DNA of 64,000 nucleotides from an uncultured Ignavibacteria bacterium (GCA_964576925.1 CAZNWJ010000004.1:55218-119217); one strand, 5' to 3'; counted from the stretch's first letter, positions 6,362 to 48,092 are shown. Made by a program: numbers and translations. Notes: a model not told the origin generated them from the letters alone.

Positions 6362-6889
6362 GAAATTCTGATTTGCTCGCCTCGGTGCGAGCGTTAGAGA
6401 GTCATCTCACTTCCTTTGTTTACGTTTCGCCTGAAGGCGATCCGGTGTTGCTCGGGTCGCCTTCGGCGCTTTTGGCTCATTTCTGAGCGCCCGATCGATC
6501 GAGCTACGAGGAAAGAACAGCGGGTGGAGTCAATCACAAACCGCGGAGTTGTGAGCACTCGCCTGTTGCAGTTCTACCGGGCGAGTGCCTGTGATATGTT
6601 GGCCACCCTAACCGCAGGGACAAGCCCTGCGGCTACATTCGTTCCCCTACTAATAGTCGCGTTTGGATTTATGGAGTGAATCGCTACAAAAAGGGCGGTC
6701 GAATTGAAGTGATCTCGGTGCGAGCGAGAGTGTTAGCATTCATGTTTGAAGGCCGATTTTGCGGGACAGAATGCAGTTAAGAGGGCGGGCGTCGTGAATC
6801 GCATTTGAGAGGGAATAGAGGAAGATTATGAGCAGGAACGGGTTTGCTTCGACGCGATATTCGCGATTGAGATGTCGGCAGTTTGCTCG

Positions 6890-7615
6890 CCCCTCGCATT
6901 GACAGCGCAAGAAAAGACACGGCGCAACGATCTTTAGGGGGAGATCCTGAGCAAGGTAGTGTCAAATCCCTGCGGGTGGATCGGAGGCATTTGGGCTGTA
7001 AGCGAAATCGGGAGAGGTGAGCGTGTTCGAACCGAGAAGAGACGGGATTTGACCTACGATTCTATTGAAGTGAGATTGCTTCGTCGCGGCAGAGTGCGAC
7101 GATAATCGCAGATCGTTCGCTCCTCGCGATGACGGTGCAGAAGAGAAGGAATCTGATTGGCGTCAGGTCGCCTCGCGGGTGGGAAGGGTAGTTCTTCCAG
7201 ATTGTATCGGGCGCGAGAAGACCTGACGCAACGATCTTTGGGGGAAGATACGGTGTCAGGATCGCGGGGATCCTGACCTACAGGCTGACGCAACGAATTC
7301 TAGGGGGACTATACAGATCGAGGAATTGTCAAATCCCTGCGGGTGGGTCGGAGGCATTTGGGCTGTAAGAGTAGTTGGGGAAGGTGAGCGTATTCGAGCT
7401 TAAGAGATTCGGGATTTGACCTACGATTCTTTTGAAGTGAGATTGCTTCGTCGCGGCAGAGTGCGACGACGATAATCGCAGATCGTTCGTTCCTCGCGAT
7501 GACGGTGCAGAAGAGATTGAGCCCAGAGAGCGTCAGGTCGCCTCGCGGGTGGGTAGAGTAGTTCTTCCAGCTTTTATCGGGCGCGAGAAGACCTGACGCA
7601 ACAGTCCATAGCTTG
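6890..7615 (+). repeat. About 2.3 tandem copies (367-bp period) of a composite hairpin-rich non-coding element
   Basis: The inverted-repeat (IR) hairpin GTCAAATCCC...GGGATTTGAC lies at 6961-7053 and 7328-7420. The box CGTTCGCTCCTCGCGATGACGGTGCAG is at 7118 and 7486. The hairpin GCGTCAGGTC...GACCTGACGC is at 7160-7235 and 7524-7600. The GACGCAACGATCTTTRGGGGGA motif recurs at 6925, 7225 and 7290. Confidence 0.9.
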
Positions 7616-7648
7616 AAGCAAAAGCGGCGCACCGATGGTGCGCCGCCA
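7613..7648 (-). terminator. Rho-independent terminator of the pepP-accB-pilT operon
   Basis: On the minus strand, a GGCGGCGCACC/GGTGCGCCGC stem is followed by TTTTGCTTC, directly after the pilT stop. Confidence 0.65.
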
Positions 7649-19169: not shown

Positions 19170-20288
19170 TTGAAGCAGGCAAAGCGTGGTAACGTCGAGC
19201 CGAATCTCTTTGAGAAACCGGCTCCACGTATCGCGCCTCGGGCAATTGCGGCCCCCTTCGTGTTCATTGATCTCTTTGCAGGAATCGGAGGCTTCCGTAT
19301 CGGCCTCGAACGACTGGGCGGGCGTTGCGCGTTTTCATGTGAATGGGACAAGAACGCTCAAAGAACTTATCATGCATGGTTTGGTGAGATTCCTGCCGGT
19401 GACATTCGTAACGTCAATCCATGCGACATCCCTGATCATGACTTGTTGGCAGCGGGATTTCCCTGTCAGCCATTTTCAATTGCTGGCGTGTCCAAGAAGA
19501 ACAGCCTGGGTCACGAACACGGATTCAAGGACAAGACCCAGGGTACTCTATTCTTCCACATAGCCGAGATCATGCAGATGAAGAGACCTCCGGTTGCGAT
19601 TCTGGAGAATGTGAAGAATCTGCTTTCACACGAACGAGGTCGAACATGGCAGGTCATCAAGTCGACACTTGAAGAATTGAATTACGTCGTGTTCCACAAG
19701 ATCATAGATGCGTCCGGCTACGTGCCTCAGCACCGCGAAAGAGTCTTCATTGTCTGCTTTGACAAGGAGGTCTTTGGGGCCAACCCCGACTTTAGTTTCC
19801 CAGCGCCGGTCTCTGACACTGCGCCGAAGTTCAAGTCTATTCTTGAGAAGAAACCAGGCTCGAAGTATATTCTGACTGACCATCTTTGGGAATACCTGCA
19901 GAACTATGCTGCTGCGCACAAAGCGAAAGGCAATGGCTTTGGATTTGGAATGACGGACCTGAATGGAGTGAGTCGAACCCTGAGCGCTCGCTACTACAAG
20001 GACGGATCAGAGGTCTTGATCCCCCGAAATGGTGGCAACCCCCGCAGATTAACTCCACGGGAGGCCGCACGATTGATGGGTTTCGATGATTCGCTTGAGA
20101 TCGTTGTTTCGGATACGCAGGCCTACAAGCAGTTCGGGAACGCGGTTGTACCGGCGGTCGTGGAGGCTGTCGGGGGCGAAATTGTCAAGACCATGTTGCT
20201 CAAGTTTCAGATGATCGAGAATGGGTGTTTGCTCAAAGGACGAGACATCACTGTGAACTCGAATAAGGACATGATGATCGGAGGCTAG
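19170..20288 (+). CDS. dcm: DNA (cytosine-5)-methyltransferase
   Basis: Motif I FIDLFAGIGGF, IV GFPCQPFS, VI ENVKNLL, VIII QHRERVFIV, X GNAV. TTG start. Low local GC. Confidence 0.95.
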   Translation: MKQAKRGNVEPNLFEKPAPRIAPRAIAAPFVFIDLFAGIGGFRIGLERLGGRCAFSCEWDKNAQRTYHAWFGEIPAGDIRNVNPCDIPDHDLLAAGFPCQPFSIAGVSKKNSLGHEHGFKDKTQGTLFFHIAEIMQMKRPPVAILENVKNLLSHERGRTWQVIKSTLEELNYVVFHKIIDASGYVPQHRERVFIVCFDKEVFGANPDFSFPAPVSDTAPKFKSILEKKPGSKYILTDHLWEYLQNYAAAHKAKGNGFGFGMTDLNGVSRTLSARYYKDGSEVLIPRNGGNPRRLTPREAARLMGFDDSLEIVVSDTQAYKQFGNAVVPAVVEAVGGEIVKTMLLKFQMIENGCLLKGRDITVNSNKDMMIGG

Positions 20289-20292
20289 GGCG

Positions 20293-21273
20293 ATGAACAT
20301 TACAGGTTTGCTTAAAGGCTCTGAGTGGGACTATCCGTTCTTTAAGGTGCTGGCAAGAAACGACACCGGAGAGGCTCAAGGACATCAATCCGGATTAGTC
20401 CTTCCCAAAGACCTGCGAGACTACATGCCTGCACTTGAAGAACATAATGTCTCACAGATCTTTCCCACCGTGGATAGAATCCTCACTGCAGAGTTGTACA
20501 AGGGCAGAGTTCTTCTCGACAAATCAAGCCTTCGTTACCAGATTCAAACATGGGGTGGGAAGCGAACGCCGGAGGCGCGAATTACTGCAGGCATTCGAAC
20601 TTTGACGAATCTGGCGAAAGTTGGGGACATACTTGTATTTCAGAGGCGAATCGACTCGGTCGAGGAGTATCGCTTAATATTAATCGAAAGAGCTTCGGCA
20701 GAATATCGTGCTATCGAACGCTTGGTAGCAGGTAGAAAATGGGGCCCACTTAATGCACGTGCTGCTCCAATAACAATTGAGCAGTTTTCGCAAGCCAAGG
20801 AAGAGATGATGCAGACCGCCGACAAAACATTCAGACTGCAGGCAGAACCGCGAAGAATCTCAGGCACTGGCGTTACAAGGATCGCAAGAGACTCTGCATT
20901 CCGCGAAGTAGTAAAGCTACAATATGCGTTCAAGTGTTCGATCAGTGGATATGGGCTCTCTACACAGAGTTCTCACTACGAGGTGGAGGCAGCTCACATA
21001 GTTCCGAAGGAGCACGGAGGACCTGACGACCCACGAAACGGACTATGCCTTACACGCACTTTGCACTGGGCGTTTGATCGGGGCCTAATTGGCGTTACCA
21101 CTGAAAGAAGGGTGTTTATTCCGGAAGATATCAGGTCAATGCCTCAGAACGACTTGCTGCTGCAATTTGACGGGAGGCCTCTTGCAATCCCAAAGAATCC
21201 GAATCTTGCTGCTCACGAAGATGCGCTAGCCTGGCACAGAACGAATGTAGTTCGAGCCTTGGACCATGGTTGA
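20293..21273 (+). CDS. Putative restriction endonuclease: uncharacterized N-terminal DNA-recognition region plus C-terminal HNH nuclease
   Basis: HNH motif EAAHIVPKEHGGPDDPRNGLCLTRTLHWAFDRG at the C-terminus. Sits between dcm and vsr on the same strand. The N-terminal ~200 aa have no obvious family. Confidence 0.65.
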   Translation: MNITGLLKGSEWDYPFFKVLARNDTGEAQGHQSGLVLPKDLRDYMPALEEHNVSQIFPTVDRILTAELYKGRVLLDKSSLRYQIQTWGGKRTPEARITAGIRTLTNLAKVGDILVFQRRIDSVEEYRLILIERASAEYRAIERLVAGRKWGPLNARAAPITIEQFSQAKEEMMQTADKTFRLQAEPRRISGTGVTRIARDSAFREVVKLQYAFKCSISGYGLSTQSSHYEVEAAHIVPKEHGGPDDPRNGLCLTRTLHWAFDRGLIGVTTERRVFIPEDIRSMPQNDLLLQFDGRPLAIPKNPNLAAHEDALAWHRTNVVRALDHG

Positions 21274-21679
21274 TGTCCTGACACCTGGTCAGCGTCGCAA
21301 GAATATGGCTGCGATAAAGTCACATGACACGAAGCCTGAACTCAGAGTTAGACGCGTTGTACATAGACTCGGATTTCGCTTTGCTCTTCACAAGAAAGAC
21401 CTCCCAGGAAAGCCTGACTTAGCCCTGACGAAGCATCGAAAGGTCATCTTGGTTCATGGGTGTTACTGGCACATGCACAATTGCAGGTACGGACGCGTAG
21501 TTCCGAGAACAAACGCTCGGTTCTGGCGTGCAAAACGCGAGACAAACGTTGAAAGGGATCGCAGAAACCTCAGAGAGCTTCGTAAGCTGAAATGGAAAGT
21601 ACTCGTTGTTTGGGAGTGTCAAACAAGAAATCAAGAGAGATTGAAAAGGCGACTTCAGAAGTTTCTATTCAGCAACTGA
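21266..21679 (+). CDS. vsr: Very-short-patch repair endonuclease (T:G mismatch)
   Basis: N-terminus TPGQRRKNMAAIKSHDTKPELRVRRVVHRLGFRFALHKKDLPGKPDL. Catalytic region HGCYWHMH. Overlaps the HNH gene by 8 nt. Confidence 0.9.
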   Translation: MVDVLTPGQRRKNMAAIKSHDTKPELRVRRVVHRLGFRFALHKKDLPGKPDLALTKHRKVILVHGCYWHMHNCRYGRVVPRTNARFWRAKRETNVERDRRNLRELRKLKWKVLVVWECQTRNQERLKRRLQKFLFSN

Positions 21680-40134: not shown

Positions 40135-41616
40135 CTATGCGCCAACCTTGCCGGTCAGGGTAACAACTCGCTGTCTGGCTAATGACTGGTTAAGATTGTT
40201 GACTGAATTGTAAGTGAACGCTTCCTGAAAGCTGTGCTCGGCTTTCTCGGTTTCCCCCTTGCCCCGATAAGCCTCGGCCAGCAGGCAGAGATTGTAAGGG
40301 TTCTGCGGGTTCGACTGGCCGAGATGCGTGATTGCTTGAGCCCAGTTCTTTTCCTGCAGCGCGATAATCGCCCCCAACTGGTGGGCGGCCCAAATCTGGA
40401 AGGTGTTCTGGTTGGCCTCGGCGCCGGTTTGATAAGTCTGAAAATGTTGTTTGGCCGATTCCAGATCACCGGAACGCGCGGCAACACGGCCGGCATCATA
40501 ATGGAAGTTGAGTTGCGCCAGCGCCATCAGGCGTTCGGAGTTATTCTCGGCCTTGGCCTGCAGGTCGACGGTTTCCTGGAAACGCTGGAGCGCATCAGCG
40601 TGACGGCCCATTTCGAGAAGGACATTCCCCATCAAATTGACGTCGCCCGACATGGCCGCGAAATCGTTGCTCGCGGCGGCGATGTCATACATCTTGTGCA
40701 GCATATCGAGTCCAAGCTCGTAATTGCCTTCGTCGATCGCCGAGATCGCCATCCCCGCATAGGCGGCACGGCGCTGGCCATCGTTTTTTGCCTGGTCGAG
40801 AAACTGTTGTAGTTTCTCGCGCGCGTCTTGGTGGCGACCCATGAAATTGAGATTGCTGGCGATGCCGAAGTACGACGGCGGGAAATCGGCATTGGTCTTG
40901 AGCGCTTTCTCGTATTGCGCGATCGATTCTTCGAAGCGGCTCAGCTTCATCAACAACTCGGCATACGAATCGTAGGGGTTCGGATCGGTCGGGATCAGCT
41001 CGATGTATTTCTTGAATGCCGCTTCGGCCTCATCCATGCGGTTATTGAAGCGGTGCGCGTAGCCGAGTTGGTTGTAAACCGGCGAGTAGTTCGGCGAGAT
41101 TGCCGCGGCCTGCATGTAATGGCGGGAGGCGTCCTCCCAGCGTTGCTGGCCGAAGTAGACGTTGCCGAGAAGCGTGTGGACGCGCTCGTCGGTTGGGCGG
41201 GCCGTTTCAAGCTGCTTGAGAAGTTCTTCCTGCTTGGGCTGATCGCCATTAACGCCGGCGACCGTAGCCTGGATCAGCAATTGCTCTGCGGGGCTGGCCT
41301 TGGCGGCGGTGTTGCGCGCCTTATCGAGAGCGGCGAAAAAATCCGCGGGTGTGGCGGAAACCTGCGCAAGCAACAGGTGTGCCTGGGCGAAATCGGGATC
41401 GAGTTCGACCGCCTGTTTAAGCAGCGGCAGCGCCTCGGTGGCGCGCAATTTTTCGCTGAGATCGCGCGCCTGGACGAATAACTGTTTGGCCTTGTCGGAG
41501 TTGGTTGTGATCGGGACTTTGCCGTCGTCGACCGGCGTTGAAGCGCAGCCGAAAGCGGCGAGTGTCAACAGCGCCAGCGCGAGGACGGCGCCGCGGCGAG
41601 CCTTGACAAATTGCAT
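40135..41616 (-). CDS. TPR-repeat lipoprotein
   Basis: Lipobox LAAFGC after a signal peptide, then about ten TPR repeats. Confidence 0.7.
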   Translation of the reverse strand: MQFVKARRGAVLALALLTLAAFGCASTPVDDGKVPITTNSDKAKQLFVQARDLSEKLRATEALPLLKQAVELDPDFAQAHLLLAQVSATPADFFAALDKARNTAAKASPAEQLLIQATVAGVNGDQPKQEELLKQLETARPTDERVHTLLGNVYFGQQRWEDASRHYMQAAAISPNYSPVYNQLGYAHRFNNRMDEAEAAFKKYIELIPTDPNPYDSYAELLMKLSRFEESIAQYEKALKTNADFPPSYFGIASNLNFMGRHQDAREKLQQFLDQAKNDGQRRAAYAGMAISAIDEGNYELGLDMLHKMYDIAAASNDFAAMSGDVNLMGNVLLEMGRHADALQRFQETVDLQAKAENNSERLMALAQLNFHYDAGRVAARSGDLESAKQHFQTYQTGAEANQNTFQIWAAHQLGAIIALQEKNWAQAITHLGQSNPQNPYNLCLLAEAYRGKGETEKAEHSFQEAFTYNSVNNLNQSLARQRVVTLTGKVGA

Positions 41617-41796
41617 CGGGATCTCCTTATGTCAGGAAAGTTGCGTAATGGGTTACCAATAAATATGAGACGCAGTGAGGCGTGCGTCGTTTAATCGCAT
41701 ACGGTTGGGCAGTTTAGGTTACGAGATTGGGCGGGAAGAAGTTGCGGGGAATGTCATTCCCGCGCAGGCGGGAATCCAGGGTTTTTGGACAGCGAG

Positions 41797-42115
41797 TCGT
41801 TCGCTCCTCGCAATGACAATAGGTGGGGCAGGGGCTGGGTTTGCCTGCCCGGGCGGATGACGGAACAGGTGCAGATCAGGTGTCAAATCCCTGCATCACG
41901 CAATATCGGTGCGGAAGACGCACGTCTGTCGGGAACAGGCGGATCGAGGCGGTGTGAGGAGAGACGGGATTTGACCTACTGGCTACGAAATCACGTCGAA
42001 GCGAGAAACCCGACACTCGCTTGCAAATCACGTACCGATGTCGGGTTTCTCATTCCGCGCGCACTAGTCCGGTTACTTGCGGTGGATTTACGCGCGGAAT
42101 TCGGATCCTGACTTG
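41797..42115 (+). repeat. Composite hairpin-rich element, copy B1 (modules M1-M4)
   Basis: M1 CGTTCGCTCCTCGCAATGAC plus the GGGCAGGGGCTGGGTTTGCCTGCCCGGG hairpin. M2 IR GTCAAATCCC at 41883 ... GGGATTTGAC at 41975. M3 GAGAAACCCGACAC...GTCGGGTTTCTC at 42003-42051. M4 TTCCGCGCGC...CGCGCGGAATT at 42053-42101. Confidence 0.85.
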
Positions 42116-42307
42116 CGAATTGTTGCACACGCGTTTGGATGCGATAATTCGCGGTGGTGCGATAAGAGTCGGGAATTGATCCTCGGCCTGAGCCGTTGCC
42201 GTCCTGCGATGGGCGACGATTTTCCCGAACTTGAATCCTTCAAATCACAGGTCCGGTCTAAGGAAGTAAGAGTTTTTCATGTGCGTTACTGATCATTGGA
42301 GGTAGGA

Positions 42308-43357
42308 TTGACCAAGAAGATCATTGGCTGGACACTCGTTCTGATTGCGGCGGGCCTCGTGGCAATCTTCATCTGGTGCCTGATTCCGATTAAACCGACA
42401 ATTGCACCGCTTGCGGAACGTCCCGGCACGAAGTACTGGCAGATGTCGAAAGGCTATCGATTAGCCTACACGCATATTCTCGCTGCGCCCCCTGCCGACC
42501 GCCCGCCGGTCATTTATGTACATGGCGGACCGGGCGGTTATGTTGACTCCACCGAAATCAATACATTCGGTGTGTTGGCGCAATTCGGACACGATGTTTA
42601 TCTCTATGACCAAGTCGGATCGGGGCTATCCGACCGGCTGCCGCGGCCGAAGGACTATTCGTTCACCGGACACCTTGCAGATTTGCACGAGATTATCACG
42701 CGACAGCTGGCGGCGCCCCAGGTGATTCTGATCGGGCAGTCGTACGGCGGTATCCTGGCCGCGCACTATCTGGCGCAGCATCCGGAAATGGTCGAGAAGA
42801 TCGTCCTGAGTTCCCCGGGCGAGTTGGCGCCGACACGGTTTACCGCGGAAGGCAAGTGGGTGAACGACAGTCTTTATCCGACGCCGGATTCACCGAGATT
42901 CATCAAGGTCGAGAGCAAGGGCGGTGATGTGGCGATGAGGATGCCGTTACGGGGATTGCTGGCGATGGCATTGGCGACCACCCTGAATATCAAGTTCGTG
43001 CCGGATGCCGAGGCGGACGGAATCCTTAACACACTTGCGGCCGGGTTTACCTGGGAGATGGTCTGTGATTCGGCGAACGTGCGGCCGGAGGAAGGCGGCG
43101 CGGGATTCTATTCACACGGTTGGAGCAACTGGTTTGGCGATCTGGAGGATCCGCGCGAAGCGATGCGAACGATCAAGGTGCCCGTGTTGGTACTCCAGGG
43201 TCAGTGCGACCATATCCCCTATGCGGCCGTAATTGAGTACGCCGATCTGTTCCCGGAATCACGCTACGTATTCATCGAAGGGGCCGGGCACGTGATCTGG
43301 TGGGAGAAGCGGGAGGAGTATCTGCGATTGATCGGTGAATTCCTCGCCGAGCGATAG
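42308..43357 (+). CDS. Alpha/beta-hydrolase, proline iminopeptidase-like (S33 family)
   Basis: N-terminal TM helix. Nucleophile elbow GQSYGG. HGGPGG oxyanion region. A GGAGG RBS sits 7 nt before the TTG at 42308, and the ORF also opens at TTG 42296. Confidence 0.8.
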   Translation: MTKKIIGWTLVLIAAGLVAIFIWCLIPIKPTIAPLAERPGTKYWQMSKGYRLAYTHILAAPPADRPPVIYVHGGPGGYVDSTEINTFGVLAQFGHDVYLYDQVGSGLSDRLPRPKDYSFTGHLADLHEIITRQLAAPQVILIGQSYGGILAAHYLAQHPEMVEKIVLSSPGELAPTRFTAEGKWVNDSLYPTPDSPRFIKVESKGGDVAMRMPLRGLLAMALATTLNIKFVPDAEADGILNTLAAGFTWEMVCDSANVRPEEGGAGFYSHGWSNWFGDLEDPREAMRTIKVPVLVLQGQCDHIPYAAVIEYADLFPESRYVFIEGAGHVIWWEKREEYLRLIGEFLAER

Positions 43358-43489
43358 ACCGTGACAGGCGGGTGTTGAAGCCCTGCAGAAAGTCAACTCG
43401 GAAATGGGTTTGTGCAACCATGGGGTGCGACCTGCGGGCGTCGGTTAGATTGCTTCGTAGCGGCAGTGGAAGGTAGTTGTTCCAGGGGG

Positions 43490-43810
43490 ATCGTCCGCTC
43501 CTCGCAATGACAGAAATCGGGCGTAGGGGCTGGGTTTGCCTGCCCGGGTATGTGACGGGACGAAGGATGATCAGGTGTCAAATCCCTACGTCGCGGAATA
43601 TCGAAATGGAATGGACCCGTGTGTCGGACAAACGGATCGCGGTGGTGTGAGGAGAGGCGGGATTTGACCTACTGGCTACGAAATCACGTCGAAGCGAGAA
43701 ACCCGACACTCGCTTGCAAATCACGTACCGATGTCGGGTTTCTCATTCCGCGCATTGTAATCCGGTTGTTTACGTTGGACCTGTGCGCGGAATTCGGAAC
43801 CCGACCTACG
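43490..43810 (+). repeat. Composite hairpin-rich element, copy B2 (M1-M4), followed by an orphan half of M2 at about 43830-43885
   Basis: M1 at 43490-43548. M2 IR at 43577-43667. M3 at 43696-43744. M4 at 43745-43800. The M3 and flanking sequence are near-identical to copy B1. Confidence 0.85.
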
Positions 43811-43893
43811 AACTACGGAACATCCATATGGAATACACGCGTCTGTCGGACAGGTAGATTGTGGTGGCGTTAGAAGAAGCGAGATTTGACCGA

Positions 43894-44622
43894 CTACTTC
43901 AGCAGCAGCAATTTTAGACTGTGTTGTTTGCCTCCGGCAATAATTCGACAGAAATAGACGCCGGATGCAGCCGCAGCACCGGTTTCATCGCGACCATCCC
44001 AGGAAAACTCATGAGGACCGGATAACAATAGCCGCCGCTGGAGAAGGCGAACCCTGCGGCCGCTGACATCAATTATCGAAATGTCAACAGCAGCCGATGC
44101 GGAGAGGTTGAAACTGATAGTCGTAGCCAAATTGAAGGGATTAGGAAATGCAACGAGTCGCATTTCGGACAGTGAATTCACGTCAACGGCATATTCAGTC
44201 GATAGCGGTTGCGGGTGCAGATAGAACGTGTACTCAGTGGGCCCAAAGGTGAAATCGAAGTCGTCTGGACATCCCAACTGATCCCACTTGTAACTGACAA
44301 TTGTGGTATCGTAGCCTTGCGCAGTAGCATAATAGTGTACATATCCGCCAACAGGTCCTGAGGGATAGTACAATGTGCAACAATCGGCGATGGTGAAACG
44401 ACCCTCTGCATCAGTCAGGGCAAACAGTTCGCCATTGAGATTTCCGCATCCCCAGCATTGGGAGTACAAGCTGACGAGGGCGCCTTCGATGGGTAGAGAA
44501 TCCCGATAGTCGAGCACCTGCCCGGAAAGACCATTGTTGATGAAACACCCGGCTGACGCTGATGATGCTGATACCAATAGCCCCAACAGCCAGAAACAGA
44601 ACGCAAACTTGGATTGCCGCAT
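43894..44622 (-). CDS. Secreted protein with a CarbopepD_reg-like N-terminal domain and a T9SS C-terminal sorting domain
   Basis: Signal peptide. GQVLDYRDSLPIEGALVSL...TDAEGRFTI. CTD FPNPFNLATTISFNLS...GVYFCRI...KLLLLK. Confidence 0.7.
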   Translation of the reverse strand: MRQSKFAFCFWLLGLLVSASSASAGCFINNGLSGQVLDYRDSLPIEGALVSLYSQCWGCGNLNGELFALTDAEGRFTIADCCTLYYPSGPVGGYVHYYATAQGYDTTIVSYKWDQLGCPDDFDFTFGPTEYTFYLHPQPLSTEYAVDVNSLSEMRLVAFPNPFNLATTISFNLSASAAVDISIIDVSGRRVRLLQRRLLLSGPHEFSWDGRDETGAAAASGVYFCRIIAGGKQHSLKLLLLK

Positions 44623-44724
44623 AGTTAGCTCCGCTTAACAAGTCCCTTTCGTCCGAGCTGTCAGACCCCGTTGTACAATTCAAGTTACCTAAATCTACAA
44701 ATGTGTCAAGCATTAAGAGCAGTT

Positions 44725-45045
44725 GTCAAATCCCTTCGTCACGGAATATCTAAACGGAACGCACACGTCTATCGGATAGATAGATTGCGGTGGTGTGAGA
44801 AAAAGCGGGATTTTACCTACGAACTCGCTCCTCGCAATGAGGAACGGTGGGCCTAGGGGTTGGGTTTGTCTGCCCGGGTTAGTATTCCGTAGGTCGGGTT
44901 CCGAGCGTTGCCGTTGCCCTATTCTACGAAATCATGTGGAAGCGAGAAACCCGACACTTCCGAATCACACACCGATGTCGGGTTTCTCATTCCGCGCGCA
45001 ATAATCCGTTTACTTGCGTTGGATTTCCGCGCGGAATTCAGAACC
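44725..45045 (+). repeat. Composite hairpin-rich element, copy B3 (module order M2-M1-M3-M4)
   Basis: M2 IR at 44725-44817, with the 3-prime arm variant GGGATTTTAC. M1 at 44821-44878. M3 at 44944-44987. M4 at 44989-45040. Confidence 0.85.
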
Positions 45046-45573
45046 CGACCTACGAACTGCCAATGTCGACTTCGATCGACGATAGATGCGCCTTATCACT
45101 CTTTGAGACCGACAGCCTTTGGCCCCACATTCGCCGAAGAACCCGAGCAAGTAGATGCCAGAAAATGGATTGTGGCTCGGCTTGTTGATTTGACTCAGCA
45201 GTCGCGACATTTCGCATGAGCAATGCAGATTTGGAGAGATGTGAACCAACAAGACCGTGTCAGATGGATACGGTAGATCTGACTTCCTCTTAAGAATACG
45301 ATTGAGTCGTTCTTCCAGTCTGAGTTCCTCCCATGTCCCGACTTCAGTTTCCTCTCCGCGGTACGTCTGCCATTTCCGACGTGCGTCACTTGGATTGTAG
45401 TATTCCGAGGTGATTTCGAGATCTATGCACTGATTTCGTTGCACATATCGAAGGTCCGGTCGCGGATTGTCGAGTCGCCGCTCAAACACAAAGCTGTGCC
45501 CGCTGCGAGCGTTGTACCAGGCAATGAAGGTATCAGCTACGTCCCTCTCGAATTTGACCTGAGATCGATCCAT
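45010..45573 (-). CDS. Hypothetical protein in a low-GC patch, no recognizable domain
   Basis: Open frame with AT-richer composition than its neighbours. Its last ~35 codons read into repeat copy B3, so the true 3-prime end is uncertain. Confidence 0.35.
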   Translation of the reverse strand: MDRSQVKFERDVADTFIAWYNARSGHSFVFERRLDNPRPDLRYVQRNQCIDLEITSEYYNPSDARRKWQTYRGEETEVGTWEELRLEERLNRILKRKSDLPYPSDTVLLVHISPNLHCSCEMSRLLSQINKPSHNPFSGIYLLGFFGECGAKGCRSQRVIRRIYRRSKSTLAVRRSGSEFRAEIQRK

Positions 45574-45616
45574 CTCGCCGTATTGCTCTCTGTTTCGTTG
45601 GACATGAAGTCACCCC

Positions 45617-47584
45617 CTACAACCTCCCCTTGACCCACTCTTCGAGGCCGCCGGCGAGGATCAGCTCCTGCGCAGCGATACCGACCGGGCCGATCGGGTA
45701 ATCTTTGCCGGAAGCGACGATCTTCGAGTTTGCGAAGTCGACCTTTGCAGCGATGCCGGTCTTGACGGTGAGTTTGTCGGCGCCGAATTGCTTCTTGAGA
45801 TCGTTGACGAGTTCCGGCGCTTCGACAGCAAGGAAGCCGTTATTGAGCGCGTTGCGTTTGTAGGTCTCGGAGAATGATCCGGCTACCACCAGCGCGATGC
45901 CGCGATACTTGAGCGCCGTCGCGGCCTGCTCGCGTGACGAGCCGGTCCCGAAGTTGAAGCCGCCGACGAGCACGTCGCCCTTCTTGACGATCTTGCCGAA
46001 TTCCTGATCGTAGTTTTCCATCACGACGGAGGCCTGTTGCTCCGGCGTGAAATCGTCGATGTAGGTATACTTGCCGGGATAGATGCCGTCGGTGTTGAGA
46101 TTGTCCTGATGACAGAAAATCAACTCGCCCTCGATCTGCGCCGGAAAGCCGCTGATGATCGTGACCTTGCCTGGGGCGGAAGCTTTGGCAGGGCTGCCGG
46201 ACACGCCGCCGATCGGTTTGCCTTCACCGTCTCCGCCGGGCAAATCGATATGACCGGCGATGGCCGAAGCCGCCACCACAGCGGGCGAAGCAAGATACGC
46301 CTGCGATTCTCGCGAACCCATACGGCCTTTGAAATTGCGGTTGGTGGCGGAGATACCCACTTCGCCGTCCTCAAGCGTGCCGGTGCCGAGTCCGATACAG
46401 GCGCCGCAGCCGGCGGGAAGCACAATGGCGCCGGCATCGACGAGAACCTTCCAGTCACCGCGACGCTCCGATTCGGATTGGACTTCCGAGGAAGCTGCTG
46501 CGAGATAGAACTTCACGCCGGGGGCGAATTTCTTGCCGCGGGTAACTGCTGCAGCCTGCGCGATGTCCTCGATACGTCCGTTGACGCAGGACATCAGGTA
46601 AGCTTTGTGGATGGCGACTTTTTTTGCGCGCATCGAAGCGACGGAATTCATCACTTTGACGGTGTTTGGGCCGGAAACGTGAGGCTGAACGGAATCGAGT
46701 TCGAGATAGAGCTCACGGGCATAGACAGCGCCTGTATCGGCCTTGGGGATATTCCGTTCAAGTTCATCGATGCGTCGGTGATTCATGCGCGGTTGTGATC
46801 CGCCGCCATCGGAATCCGAAGGCACGCGTTGCAGGCCGCGCTTTGCCACATAGTCTGCCCGCGCACGCAGCCAGTTGATGGTGACTTCGTCGATGGGGAA
46901 GAGGCCGACCAGCGCGCCCCATTCGGTGGTCATATTGGCGATGGTCAAGCGTTCGTCGATCGAAAGGGCTTTCAGACCGTCGCCGGCAAATTCGACGGCG
47001 TGGTTCAAGACTTCGTCTTTGTTGAAGAAACCGCAAAGCGTGACAATGACATCCTTGCCGGTAACGCCGGGGCGCAACTTGCCGCGCAATTCCACTTTTG
47101 CCACCGGCGGGACTTGCCACCAGGTGCGGCCGGTCGCCCAGATCGCGGCGGCGTCAGTGCGTACGATCGGTGTTCCGAGGCAACCAAGGCCGCCGTACAT
47201 ATTGGAGTGCGAATCGGAAGCGACCGCGAGCGTGCCAGGCCAGGCATAGCCCTCTTCGCACATGATCTGGTGTCCGATGCCGCGACCGGCCGGATAAAAG
47301 TCGATGCCGTGTTCTTTGGCAAAGGCTTCGATCTTACCGTACTTCCTGAGATTATCCTCGCCGGTGTCCTGCACGTTGTGGTCGAGGGTGAAGACAACTT
47401 GGCGCGGATTGAAGACTCTCTTTGCGCCGATCGACTTGAATTTCGGGATCACGGCGCCGGTGTTGTCGTGCGTCATGACATAGGCAGGTTTGATCGAGAT
47501 GTAGTCGCCGGCGCGAACCTCGTGGCCGGGCTCAAGACCGTACGCGAATATTTGGGCGAGTTTCTCGACGAGTGTTTGCGGCAT
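45617..47584 (-). CDS. Aconitase-family hydro-lyase with fused large (LeuC-like) and small (LeuD-like) domains
   Basis: Fe-S cluster and substrate motifs [12 protein letters not shown] and CGACIGLG. The C-terminal swivel domain resembles LeuD. 655 aa. Confidence 0.8.
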
Positions 47585-47687
47585 GGCGGATTCTCTCCAA
47601 TGTCTGTCAATAAGTCAAAACTGGAGAAAAGATACCGACCATCCGGGTGGAAGTCAACGGGCGCGGAGAGGCGTCAATACCGGCGAT

Positions 47688-48092
47688 TTAGCGATTTTCT
47701 TTGCGAATTACGAGCTTGAGTCCCGACCAGTAATCGTCGACAGCGCAGACCTTGACATCGACCAATCCAAGCGGCAAAGCGACTTCGCGAACGACATCTT
47801 CGGTCAAATCGGTCGGCACCTTGGCGGTTTTCTTCGGCCAGGAGATCCAGATCATGCCGTCCTTGGTCAATTGCTTAAGAAACTGCGGCAGCAACGCCGC
47901 CAAGCGCGGGCGCTGGGTTGCAAAGCAATGGATAAAGTCGGCAGACTTGGCGCGCGCGTCGACGATGGTTACGTCGCTCGGCAATTTCCCGACCAGGCGC
48001 AGGTAATTATCGGGCTGGTTGACCAGGCGGATCGTGAGACCCGACTTGATGCCAAGTTTGTTAATCAGGGGGGTGTCGGAATAGCCGGCCAT
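47688..48092 (-). CDS. Hypothetical protein, DUF3052-like
   Basis: N-terminal MAGYSDTPLINKLGIK motif is typical of DUF3052. The ORF stays open upstream to 48152. Confidence 0.5.
   Translation of the reverse strand: MAGYSDTPLINKLGIKSGLTIRLVNQPDNYLRLVGKLPSDVTIVDARAKSADFIHCFATQRPRLAALLPQFLKQLTKDGMIWISWPKKTAKVPTDLTEDVVREVALPLGLVDVKVCAVDDYWSGLKLVIRKENR

Follow-up and report, generated by a model that had tools for sequence, protein, structure and literature searches.

What are the three composite repeats of about 320 bp that lie between positions 41790 and 45070 of a 64,000-nucleotide (nt) stretch of DNA from an uncultured Ignavibacteria bacterium (GCA_964576925.1, CAZNWJ010000004.1:55218-119217; here called the window), and why do two accessory genes appear to be bracketed by them? 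A first, sequence-only reading had described these repeats, B1 to B3, as sets of four shared hairpin modules (M1 to M4) that belong to no described family, including repetitive extragenic palindromes (REPs) and bacterial interspersed mosaic elements (BIMEs). The three repeats are real, and all four modules were found where that reading had placed them. However, they carry the signature of REPs, namely, a GTAG tetranucleotide at the foot of the stem, head-to-head (HH) and tail-to-tail (TT) dimers, an arrangement in mosaic clusters, and, in relatives, a position flanking the gene for a REP-associated tyrosine transposase (RAYT). We therefore read B1 to B3, and likewise the clusters at 1-134 and 6380-7620, as BIME-like mosaic clusters of GTAG-tagged REPs that are serviced by a RAYT, and we put the probability of this reading at roughly 85%. 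The interpretation as a novel family is not supported; this kind of element is already known, and no new class is involved.

Architecture of B1 to B3

B1 occupies positions 41802-42116, B2 positions 43444-43895, and B3 positions 44725-45053, and the motif matches outnumber those in dinucleotide shuffles (6 versus 0.37, 8 versus 1.5, and 5 versus 0.39). B1 and B2 are 82% identical across 324 nt, linkers included, and are therefore copies of one whole block. The module order in B3 differs from that in B1 and B2, as had been noticed, yet every module is shared at 75% to 85% identity. An alpha/beta hydrolase gene (42296-43357, + strand) and a gene for a protein with a type IX secretion system (T9SS) tail (43894-44622, - strand) are indeed each bracketed by elements, and these bracketed genes are variable; their outer neighbors encode a tetratricopeptide repeat (TPR) protein, a 187-amino-acid (aa) orphan, and aconitase. 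The parts of the three elements are as follows.

41802-41852, + strand: M1 of B1, CGCTCCTCGCAATGAC box plus GGGCAGG/CCTGCCC hairpin; a short REP in the opposite orientation
41882-41979, + strand: M2 of B1, long REP unit GTCAAATCCC-N74-GGGATTTGAC followed by CTAC; GTAG foot on the - strand
41983-42116, + strand: M3 and M4 of B1, two REP parts
42117-42183, + strand: degenerate second M2-type copy in B1
43444-43547, + strand: M1 of B2 with an upstream GATTGCTTCG motif and a GTAG-GGGCTGG...CCTGCCC hairpin
43577-43672, + strand: M2 of B2, long REP unit of 92 nt followed by CTAC
43676-43809, + strand: M3 and M4 of B2, left-unit remnant and complete right REP
43810-43895, + strand: extra M2-type copy in B2, 5'-truncated, with a degenerate tag (CGAC)
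44725-44820, + strand: M2 of B3, long REP unit followed by CTAC
44826-44877, + strand: M1 of B3, box and hairpin, with the tag CTAG
44889-45053, no strand assigned: M3 and M4 of B3, a complete heads-out doublet (HH, like a REP doublet forming a hairpin [REPIN]) of GTCGGGTTYC REPs

Almost all hairpin units finish with GAC followed by CTAC on the + strand, which corresponds to GTAG at the foot of the palindrome on the - strand. A GTAG in this place is the mark of REPs, small nonautonomous DNA repeats, that RAYTs recognize. Read from this tag, M2 has the signature GTAG-GTCAAATCCC-N72-74-GGGATTTGAC, and the units that hold M3 and M4 have the form GTAG-GTCGGGTTYC...GAAACCCGAC. Hairpins of 23 nt read GTAG-GTCAGGATC-N5-GATCCTGAC, and a further short type reads GTAG-CCGCAGGG-N5-CCCTGCGG. 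The M1 hairpin has its tag on the opposite strand (GTAG-GGGCWGG...CCTGCCC); this tag is degenerate in B1 and intact in B2 and in two relatives, L011 and L022 (loci of relatives are numbered with an L throughout). All GTCGGGTT, GTCAGGATC, and CCGCAGGG units of the window are tagged, save for degenerate copies. It is highly probable that the clusters combine GTAG-tagged REPs of at least three families, that is, long units, two-tier GTCGGGTTYC units, and short 23-nt units (the GTCAGGATC type and the GGGCWGG type within M1).

M3 and M4 both belong to the two-tier GTCGGGTTYC REP, in which the inner hairpin is M4 and in which M3 is the joint between two inverted copies. In B1, a left GTCGGGTTYC-type REP survives as its 3' remnant (41983-42014) and is followed by a right two-tier REP (42040-42116), in which the 3' arm and the tag are degenerate; these left and right units meet in the M3 hairpin, and the right one contributes the M4 hairpin as its inner tier. 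B2 has a complete two-tier REP at 43733-43809 (GTCGGGTTTC...GAACCCGAC plus CTAC), to which the 5'-truncated M2 copy is joined through a CTACG junction. The doublet in B3 consists of a GTAG-headed unit (44889-44955) and a CTAC-ended unit (44977-45053) and is closed by a 14-bp outer stem, and its fold as single-stranded DNA (ssDNA) has a free energy of -45.1 kcal/mol (z = -7.1). GTCGGGTTYC REPs form a widespread family in which the inner-tier hairpins of different copies are unrelated in sequence; in L113, a RAYT gene has four such copies at its flanks.

Some details of the sequence-only reading had to be revised. The M4 stem is present but has 10 bp (ATTCCGCGCG/CGCGCGGAAT) rather than 11 bp, and the GGGCAGG/CCTGCCC hairpin is perfect, but in B1 only. 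The 3' arm of M2 in B3 has one mismatch, and a structure test of M1 was not significant. The shared + orientation that had been emphasized is true of the composite blocks but not of the individual REPs inside them, which face both ways; GTAG is on the + strand in the M1 hairpin and in the left GTCGGGTT unit of B3.

Just 5' of B1, at 41746-41773, there is a hairpin, GTCATTCCCGCGCAGGCGGGAATCCAGG, that has no GTAG tag and is kept in L011; we take it to be a repeat type that occurs in many unrelated genomes. In addition, mechanically called open reading frames (ORFs) of 70 to 110 aa lie wholly within the repeat clusters (41785-42111, 43619-43873, 44795-45219, and 7054-7293). These are almost certainly spurious and could get misannotated as hypothetical proteins.

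The long unit and an adjacent transposase gene in relatives

A degenerate M2 pattern, in which pairing at the variable stem positions was not forced, was scanned over one genome per species. It matched 37 loci, mostly from metagenome-assembled genomes (MAGs) labeled Zixibacteria and Ignavibacteria, and gave no match in viral contigs. The window and these 37 genome loci together contain 93 M2-type units, with up to 15 units per fetched relative locus of at most 8 kb. Their length is 90 to 94 nt in 86 of 93 cases, and CTAC stands directly 3' of the stem in 87 (10/16 among the units not ascertained through CTAC), with GTAG on both sides in 3 units only. The stem is a perfect 10-bp clamp with the variants AT/AT, AA/TT, GT/AC, and GA/TC, and its two free positions are complementary in 79 of the 80 pattern matches. 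The interiors, 70 to 74 nt long, fall into 48 classes without detectable mutual similarity, contain about 0.1 bit per column, and have a mean fold z score of about 0 on both strands relative to their own shuffles. Selection is therefore seen on the foot, on the 10-bp clamp plus 2 to 4 adjacent bases, and on length, and an internal fold, of RNA or of DNA, shows no sign of it. The earlier suggestion that selection acts on the hairpin stems instead of on a protein is supported; compensatory variation is present in the M2 stem and in the M4 stem of B2, where a G-C pair is replaced by A-T in a double change.

A structured noncoding RNA (ncRNA) family had also been suggested; its members would be small RNAs or cis-regulatory leaders or trailers from the + strand, with the hairpins as RNA helices. 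Stem conservation with compensatory changes is what such a family would show, some units fold well as RNA (M2 of B1, z = -2.9 on the + strand), many interiors are purine or G rich on the CTAC strand, and many REPs are transcribed and able to stabilize or terminate mRNAs (PMC3733652). However, the 48 unrelated classes, the lack of positional information, and the mean z score of about 0 led us to reject a conserved internal M2 fold, and Rfam gave no matches at the gathering score over the window and none at an E value of ≤1 in 41600-45100. Promoter and terminator motif counts equal the background, and the positions of the units vary relative to genes (5', 3', and antisense). The conserved parts are the clamp and GTAG only, as in the recognition site of a DNA enzyme, and the units adjoin a transposase gene. 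A structured RNA family is thus very unlikely.

Captured spacers and an origin from phage or plasmid fragments were rejected: 1,508 nt of class-representative interiors, roughly half of the total, had no match in phages, the B region had none in plasmids, and the M2 pattern is missing from viral contigs. A tRNA-derived att site was suggested by the T-arm-like GTCAAATCCC, yet ARAGORN finds no tRNA in the window. For purifying selection on the interiors, which we do not claim, the evidence is mixed: unit Z and L007 differ by 15 substitutions, all of them in the interior (84.5% identity), with no indels and with both arms intact, as opposed to 99% identity between M2 of B1 and L011.

The enzyme was found next to the units in relatives. 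In L012, arrays of long units are located on both sides of an ORF of 165 aa, the product of which matches Escherichia coli TnpA_REP (PDB 4ER8) over its full length (E = 3.5e-26), and its HFH and DYIHYNPVKH motifs align to H59/H61, Y115, N119, and H123 of 4ER8_A. A second RAYT gene lies among long units in L028, and the closest database homologues of its product (79% and 58% identity) are again encoded beside 92- to 94-nt GTCAAATCCC units (L118 and L119), bringing to four the independent assemblies in which long units directly adjoin a RAYT gene. These four enzymes score 126 to 142 bits against the NCBIfam model NF047646, "REP-associated tyrosine transposase" (cutoff, 80), versus 23 to 30 bits or less against the IS200 model NF033573 (cutoff, 55), and they group together in a rough neighbor-joining tree. 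Judged by these scores, the predicted enzyme is a RAYT, closer to TnpA_REP than to IS200 TnpA. RAYT relatives at 54% are accompanied by 23-nt or 46- to 52-nt two-tier REPs, which have this GTAG-GTC foot as well. Across 80 metagenome loci that were retrieved through the RAYT protein alone, CTAC is found 3' of 127 of 376 short perfect hairpins, compared to 11 for the next tetranucleotide, and the hairpins nearest to the RAYT gene are heads-out (39:5 upstream and 37:5 downstream).

The identity of this enzyme also bears on miniature inverted-repeat transposable elements (MITEs) in the classical sense, that is, deletion derivatives of insertion sequences with a DDE transposase, moved by cut-and-paste via terminal inverted repeats (TIRs). 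Such elements would account for inverted repeats of 10 to 14 bp at the termini and for a uniform length of ~92 nt in multicopy, intergenic units. However, there are no target-site duplications, the left flanks varying and the right flank always being CTAC, and the tag is on one side only. The sole transposase found beside the units is the RAYT (four loci), the tag and foot are also present on 23-nt hairpins, which are too short for two TIRs, and viral contigs, phages, and plasmids gave no matches. Although the wording "MITE-like non-autonomous element" in the sequence-only reading was close to the truth, classical MITEs are highly improbable here.

Regular tandem arrays of long units were observed in L020 (6483-7575), L012 (2385-4778), L037 (4319-4799), and L031 (3972-4901), with periods of 152, ~247, 193, and 361 nt, respectively; the L020 array repeats its period six times, and each period combines the final ~22 nt of one unit with a linker and a complete unit of a different type. 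Ordinary short REPs with the same stem, GTCAAGTCCC, are present in the Dive100 Zixibacteria MAG (L005 4964-5069, L015, and L024), where they pair heads-out to give doublets of ~100 nt with GTAG at both ends. Such doublets may be an evolutionary link from REPIN-like doublets to the single-tag long unit. For M2 as a decayed REPIN, the arithmetic fits (5 + 10 + 40 + 10 + 5 = 70 nt, relative to the L005 doublet), but an inner-arm signal and a left GTAG are absent, and the idea is left as speculation. Another repeat family, with CCCTCTCCC...GGGAGAGGG hairpins, lies beside REP clusters in L022 (3370-3420) and L020 (6385-6440 and 7585-7640).

Rearrangements, strand bias, and a candidate mechanism

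Two relatives differ from the window at the repeat clusters. L011, which is ~89% identical, lacks window positions ~41990-45495 (~3.5 kb), which include the hydrolase gene, the T9SS-tail gene, B2, B3, and most of the orphan. It retains M1 and M2, after which a junction 6 nt past the tag leads into codon ~36 of the orphan homologue; the junction falls in a GCT microhomology, and the truncated 37-codon homologue (L011 2990-2877) stops at the TAG within the GTAG of the REP. In L022 (3156-4505), window sequence running from 10840 to 7689 (inverted) is linked to that from 45614 to 48091 via an M1-M2 unit and one unrelated gene. From this alignment, we deduce a rearrangement of the inversion type that spans about 38 kb and has the two REP clusters as its breakpoints. 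Indel and inversion breakpoints at the clusters explain the "cassette" look of the bracketed genes. Module junctions recur at CTAC(GA), and both these and the GCT junction in L011 fit CT-directed cleavage no better than ordinary illegitimate recombination. A comparison of the window with its relatives showed no clean filled-versus-empty insertion site, the difference in L011 being a deletion that ends inside a gene, and no independent contexts of the hydrolase and T9SS genes were obtained, as the exact proteins are absent from the records.

The same look had led to the proposal of recombination sites that delimit gene cassettes, which would make the elements attC-like sites of an integron-type system that captured the hydrolase and T9SS genes. 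Each of the two genes does have elements on either side, the region does differ between relatives, and attC sites are likewise conserved in structure and variable in sequence. However, the ends of the units (GTCAAAT.../...ATTTGAC plus CTAC) have no RYYYAAC/GTTRRRY cores, the M2 stem is perfect and without extrahelical bases, and the bracketed genes are on opposite strands. A scan of 20 window proteins, the ORFs covered by Pfam, showed neither an integrase nor a transposase, units also form tandem arrays that contain no genes and surround a Y1 transposase, and the L011 indel terminates within a gene, with no second site there. We consider integron-like capture extremely unlikely.

In 27 of 32 loci, CTAC lies on the strand that is richer in G (binomial P of about 1e-4). 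This 27:5 bias fits a replication-linked single-strand mechanism, with gene orientation as a confounding factor. In the window, the cumulative GC skew climbs nearly monotonically over all 64 kb and the genes are mostly on the + strand; the window is therefore probably located within one replichore. CTAC-tagged units are mostly on the G-rich strand, which is not true of the M1 hairpins, of the left GTCGGGTT unit in B3, or of the unit cut off at the window edge.

A mechanism for these REP clusters can be drawn by homology with E. coli TnpA_REP, for which the GTAG foot is needed, binding and cleavage being lost if any of its four bases is changed, and which cleaves at CT (PMC3479197). A unit would become a hairpin in ssDNA, for example, at the replication fork, and a RAYT (an HUH/Y1 transposase) presumably encoded in this genome outside the window would bind the GTAG foot and the stem. 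It would cleave at a nearby CT and could transfer strands, and by such RAYT-mediated mobility units would be copied or rearranged, stacked side by side, and duplicated blockwise. Arrays of direct and inverted repeats formed in this way would be hot spots for deletion, insertion, and inversion, and hence the variable genes (those for the hydrolase, the T9SS-tail protein, and the orphan) would look bracketed.

Several observations weigh against REP clusters serviced by a RAYT. No RAYT gene was detected in the 64-kb window by tblastn. In L012 and L028, the nearest long units point their tags at the RAYT gene, opposite to the heads-out short REPs. The unstructured loop of 70 to 74 nt is far beyond those of described GTAG REPs, which are mostly 2 to 3 nt and at maximum ~27 nt (PMC3733652). 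M2 of B1 is identical to its L011 orthologue at 97 of 98 positions, although the flanks are 90% to 92% identical. GTAG is also absent from the M1 box CGCTCCTCGCAATGAC, from its GATTGCTTCG partner, and from the two-tier hairpins that lie at 7162-7231 and 7532-7601, and the correlation with GC skew is inseparable from gene-orientation effects.

A further-reaching proposal would be that the 90- to 94-nt units are an undescribed class of RAYT substrate, selected only for the GTAG foot, the 10-bp clamp, and the length (72 nt) of a loop that is otherwise free, and that RAYT strand transfer at CT/CTAC actively reshuffles modules and genes. We regard this as unlikely. If it were true, a constraint of the ruler type would follow (for example, a second protein contact or about nine helical turns as duplex), and REP clusters would be real joints for gene gain and loss, more than passive targets of recombination.

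Comparison with known repeats and further units in the window

The closest known system is that of the GTAG REPs and REPtrons (Nunvar 2010; Ton-Hoang 2012; Messing 2012, PMC3479197; Di Nocera 2013, PMC3733652), for which dimers and clusters have been described (PMC3733652). The units in the window share with GTAG REPs the GTAG at the stem foot, complementary subvariants, an extragenic location, HH and TT dimers, and clusters, and they share with REPtrons, as seen in relatives, an adjacent RAYT gene with conserved HUH and Tyr residues. GTAG REPs have stems of 6 to 13 bp with covarying subvariants, and the M2 stem, with 10 bp and four variants, agrees with this. In size, however, only the GTCAGGATC, CCGCAGGG, and M1 hairpins fall within the described 20 to 40 bp (PMC3733652); the M2 units, with their long unstructured interior, and the GTCGGGTT units of the window, at 67 to 77 nt, do not. 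The stems appear to be unrelated to those of the 24 published GTAG families, against which they were set unsystematically, and the hosts, MAGs labeled Zixibacteria or Ignavibacteria, represent lineages that go without mention in the cited REP descriptions. What appears to lie outside the published descriptions is a long GTAG REP with a free-sequence, length-bound interior, as well as the host lineage.

REPINs are REP doublets that form hairpins, in which the length of the spacer matters and the spacer pairs (Bertels and Rainey 2011, PMC3116915). M2 resembles them in its complementary conserved ends, less conserved but length-bound spacer, ordered tandem clusters, and RAYT association (PMC3116915), and REPIN-like heads-out doublets are present at 44889-45053 in B3, at the window start together with L007, and, as long units, in L012 and L028. 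However, each end of a REPIN is itself a REP and the spacer joins one long hairpin, whereas M2 has one tag, nonpalindromic ends, and an interior without excess pairing (z of about 0). As in E. coli BIMEs, REPs occur in both orientations among other motifs (the M1 box, GATTGCTTCG, and GCAACGAnnTnTnGGGGGA), and blocks are reiterated in tandem, but there is no sequence kinship to the Y and Z REPs or to the S, L, A, and B motifs, and the likeness is descriptive. IS200/IS605 MITEs (palindrome-associated transposable elements [PATEs]) and IS608 share the Y1/HUH enzyme, the recognition of ssDNA hairpins, a guide tetranucleotide, and a strand or replication bias. They differ in that the enzyme here is a RAYT by score, that there are no distinct left-end and right-end hairpins, and that the transposase gene apparently does not travel with the repeats.

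An apparently unclassifiable modular repeat thus becomes a recognizable REP/RAYT system in a poorly studied uncultured lineage, and the size range of GTAG REPs is widened about 3-fold. The long unit is a natural test of what a RAYT reads, foot and clamp as opposed to loop sequence. Clusters located at a 3.5-kb indel and at a ~38-kb breakpoint are useful for MAG assembly, binning, and annotation and for studies of genome plasticity.

Related units are also located in the window beyond the region first described, at 1-134, 2458-2484, and 6612-6636 and in a cluster at 6880-7601. Overall, the 64-kb window contains about 20 tagged or related units, which are intergenic throughout. The additional features are as follows.

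1-134, + strand: REP doublet cut by the window edge; the L007 orthologue is a complete heads-out doublet
2458-2484, + strand: short 23-nt REP GTCAGGATC-N5-GATCCTGAC with the degenerate tag CTCT, directly past a gene end
6612-6636, + strand: short REP CCGCAGGG-N5-CCCTGCGG followed by CTAC
6880-7601, + strand: cluster A, a block of ~367 nt and its tandem duplicate (86% identity), with convergent genes on either side

Of the doublet at the window edge, the GTAG-headed unit, a GTCAAATCCC unit, is represented by its 3' arm (1-11), and positions 38-134 are a long unit with a compensatory stem variant (GTCAAGACCC-N73-GGGTCTTGAC followed by CTAC). Cluster A is located in a 1.3-kb intergenic region (6380-7620) and contains M1-type boxes at 6888, 7118, and 7488, long units at 6961-7057 and 7328-7424, and a short REP at 7255-7281. 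Its two-tier hairpins at 7162-7231 and 7532-7601 (GTCAGGTC...GACCTGAC) have no tag and fold as ssDNA with a z score of -5.6, and the GCAACGAnnTnTnGGGGGA motif, which recurs after untagged two-tier hairpins, is found at 6924-6942, 7228-7246, and 7290-7308. Apart from the repeats, the window has a low-GC (~0.50) island at 19170-21679 with genes for a C-5 cytosine DNA methylase, an HNH endonuclease, and a Vsr mismatch endonuclease, which is probably a mobile restriction-modification module.

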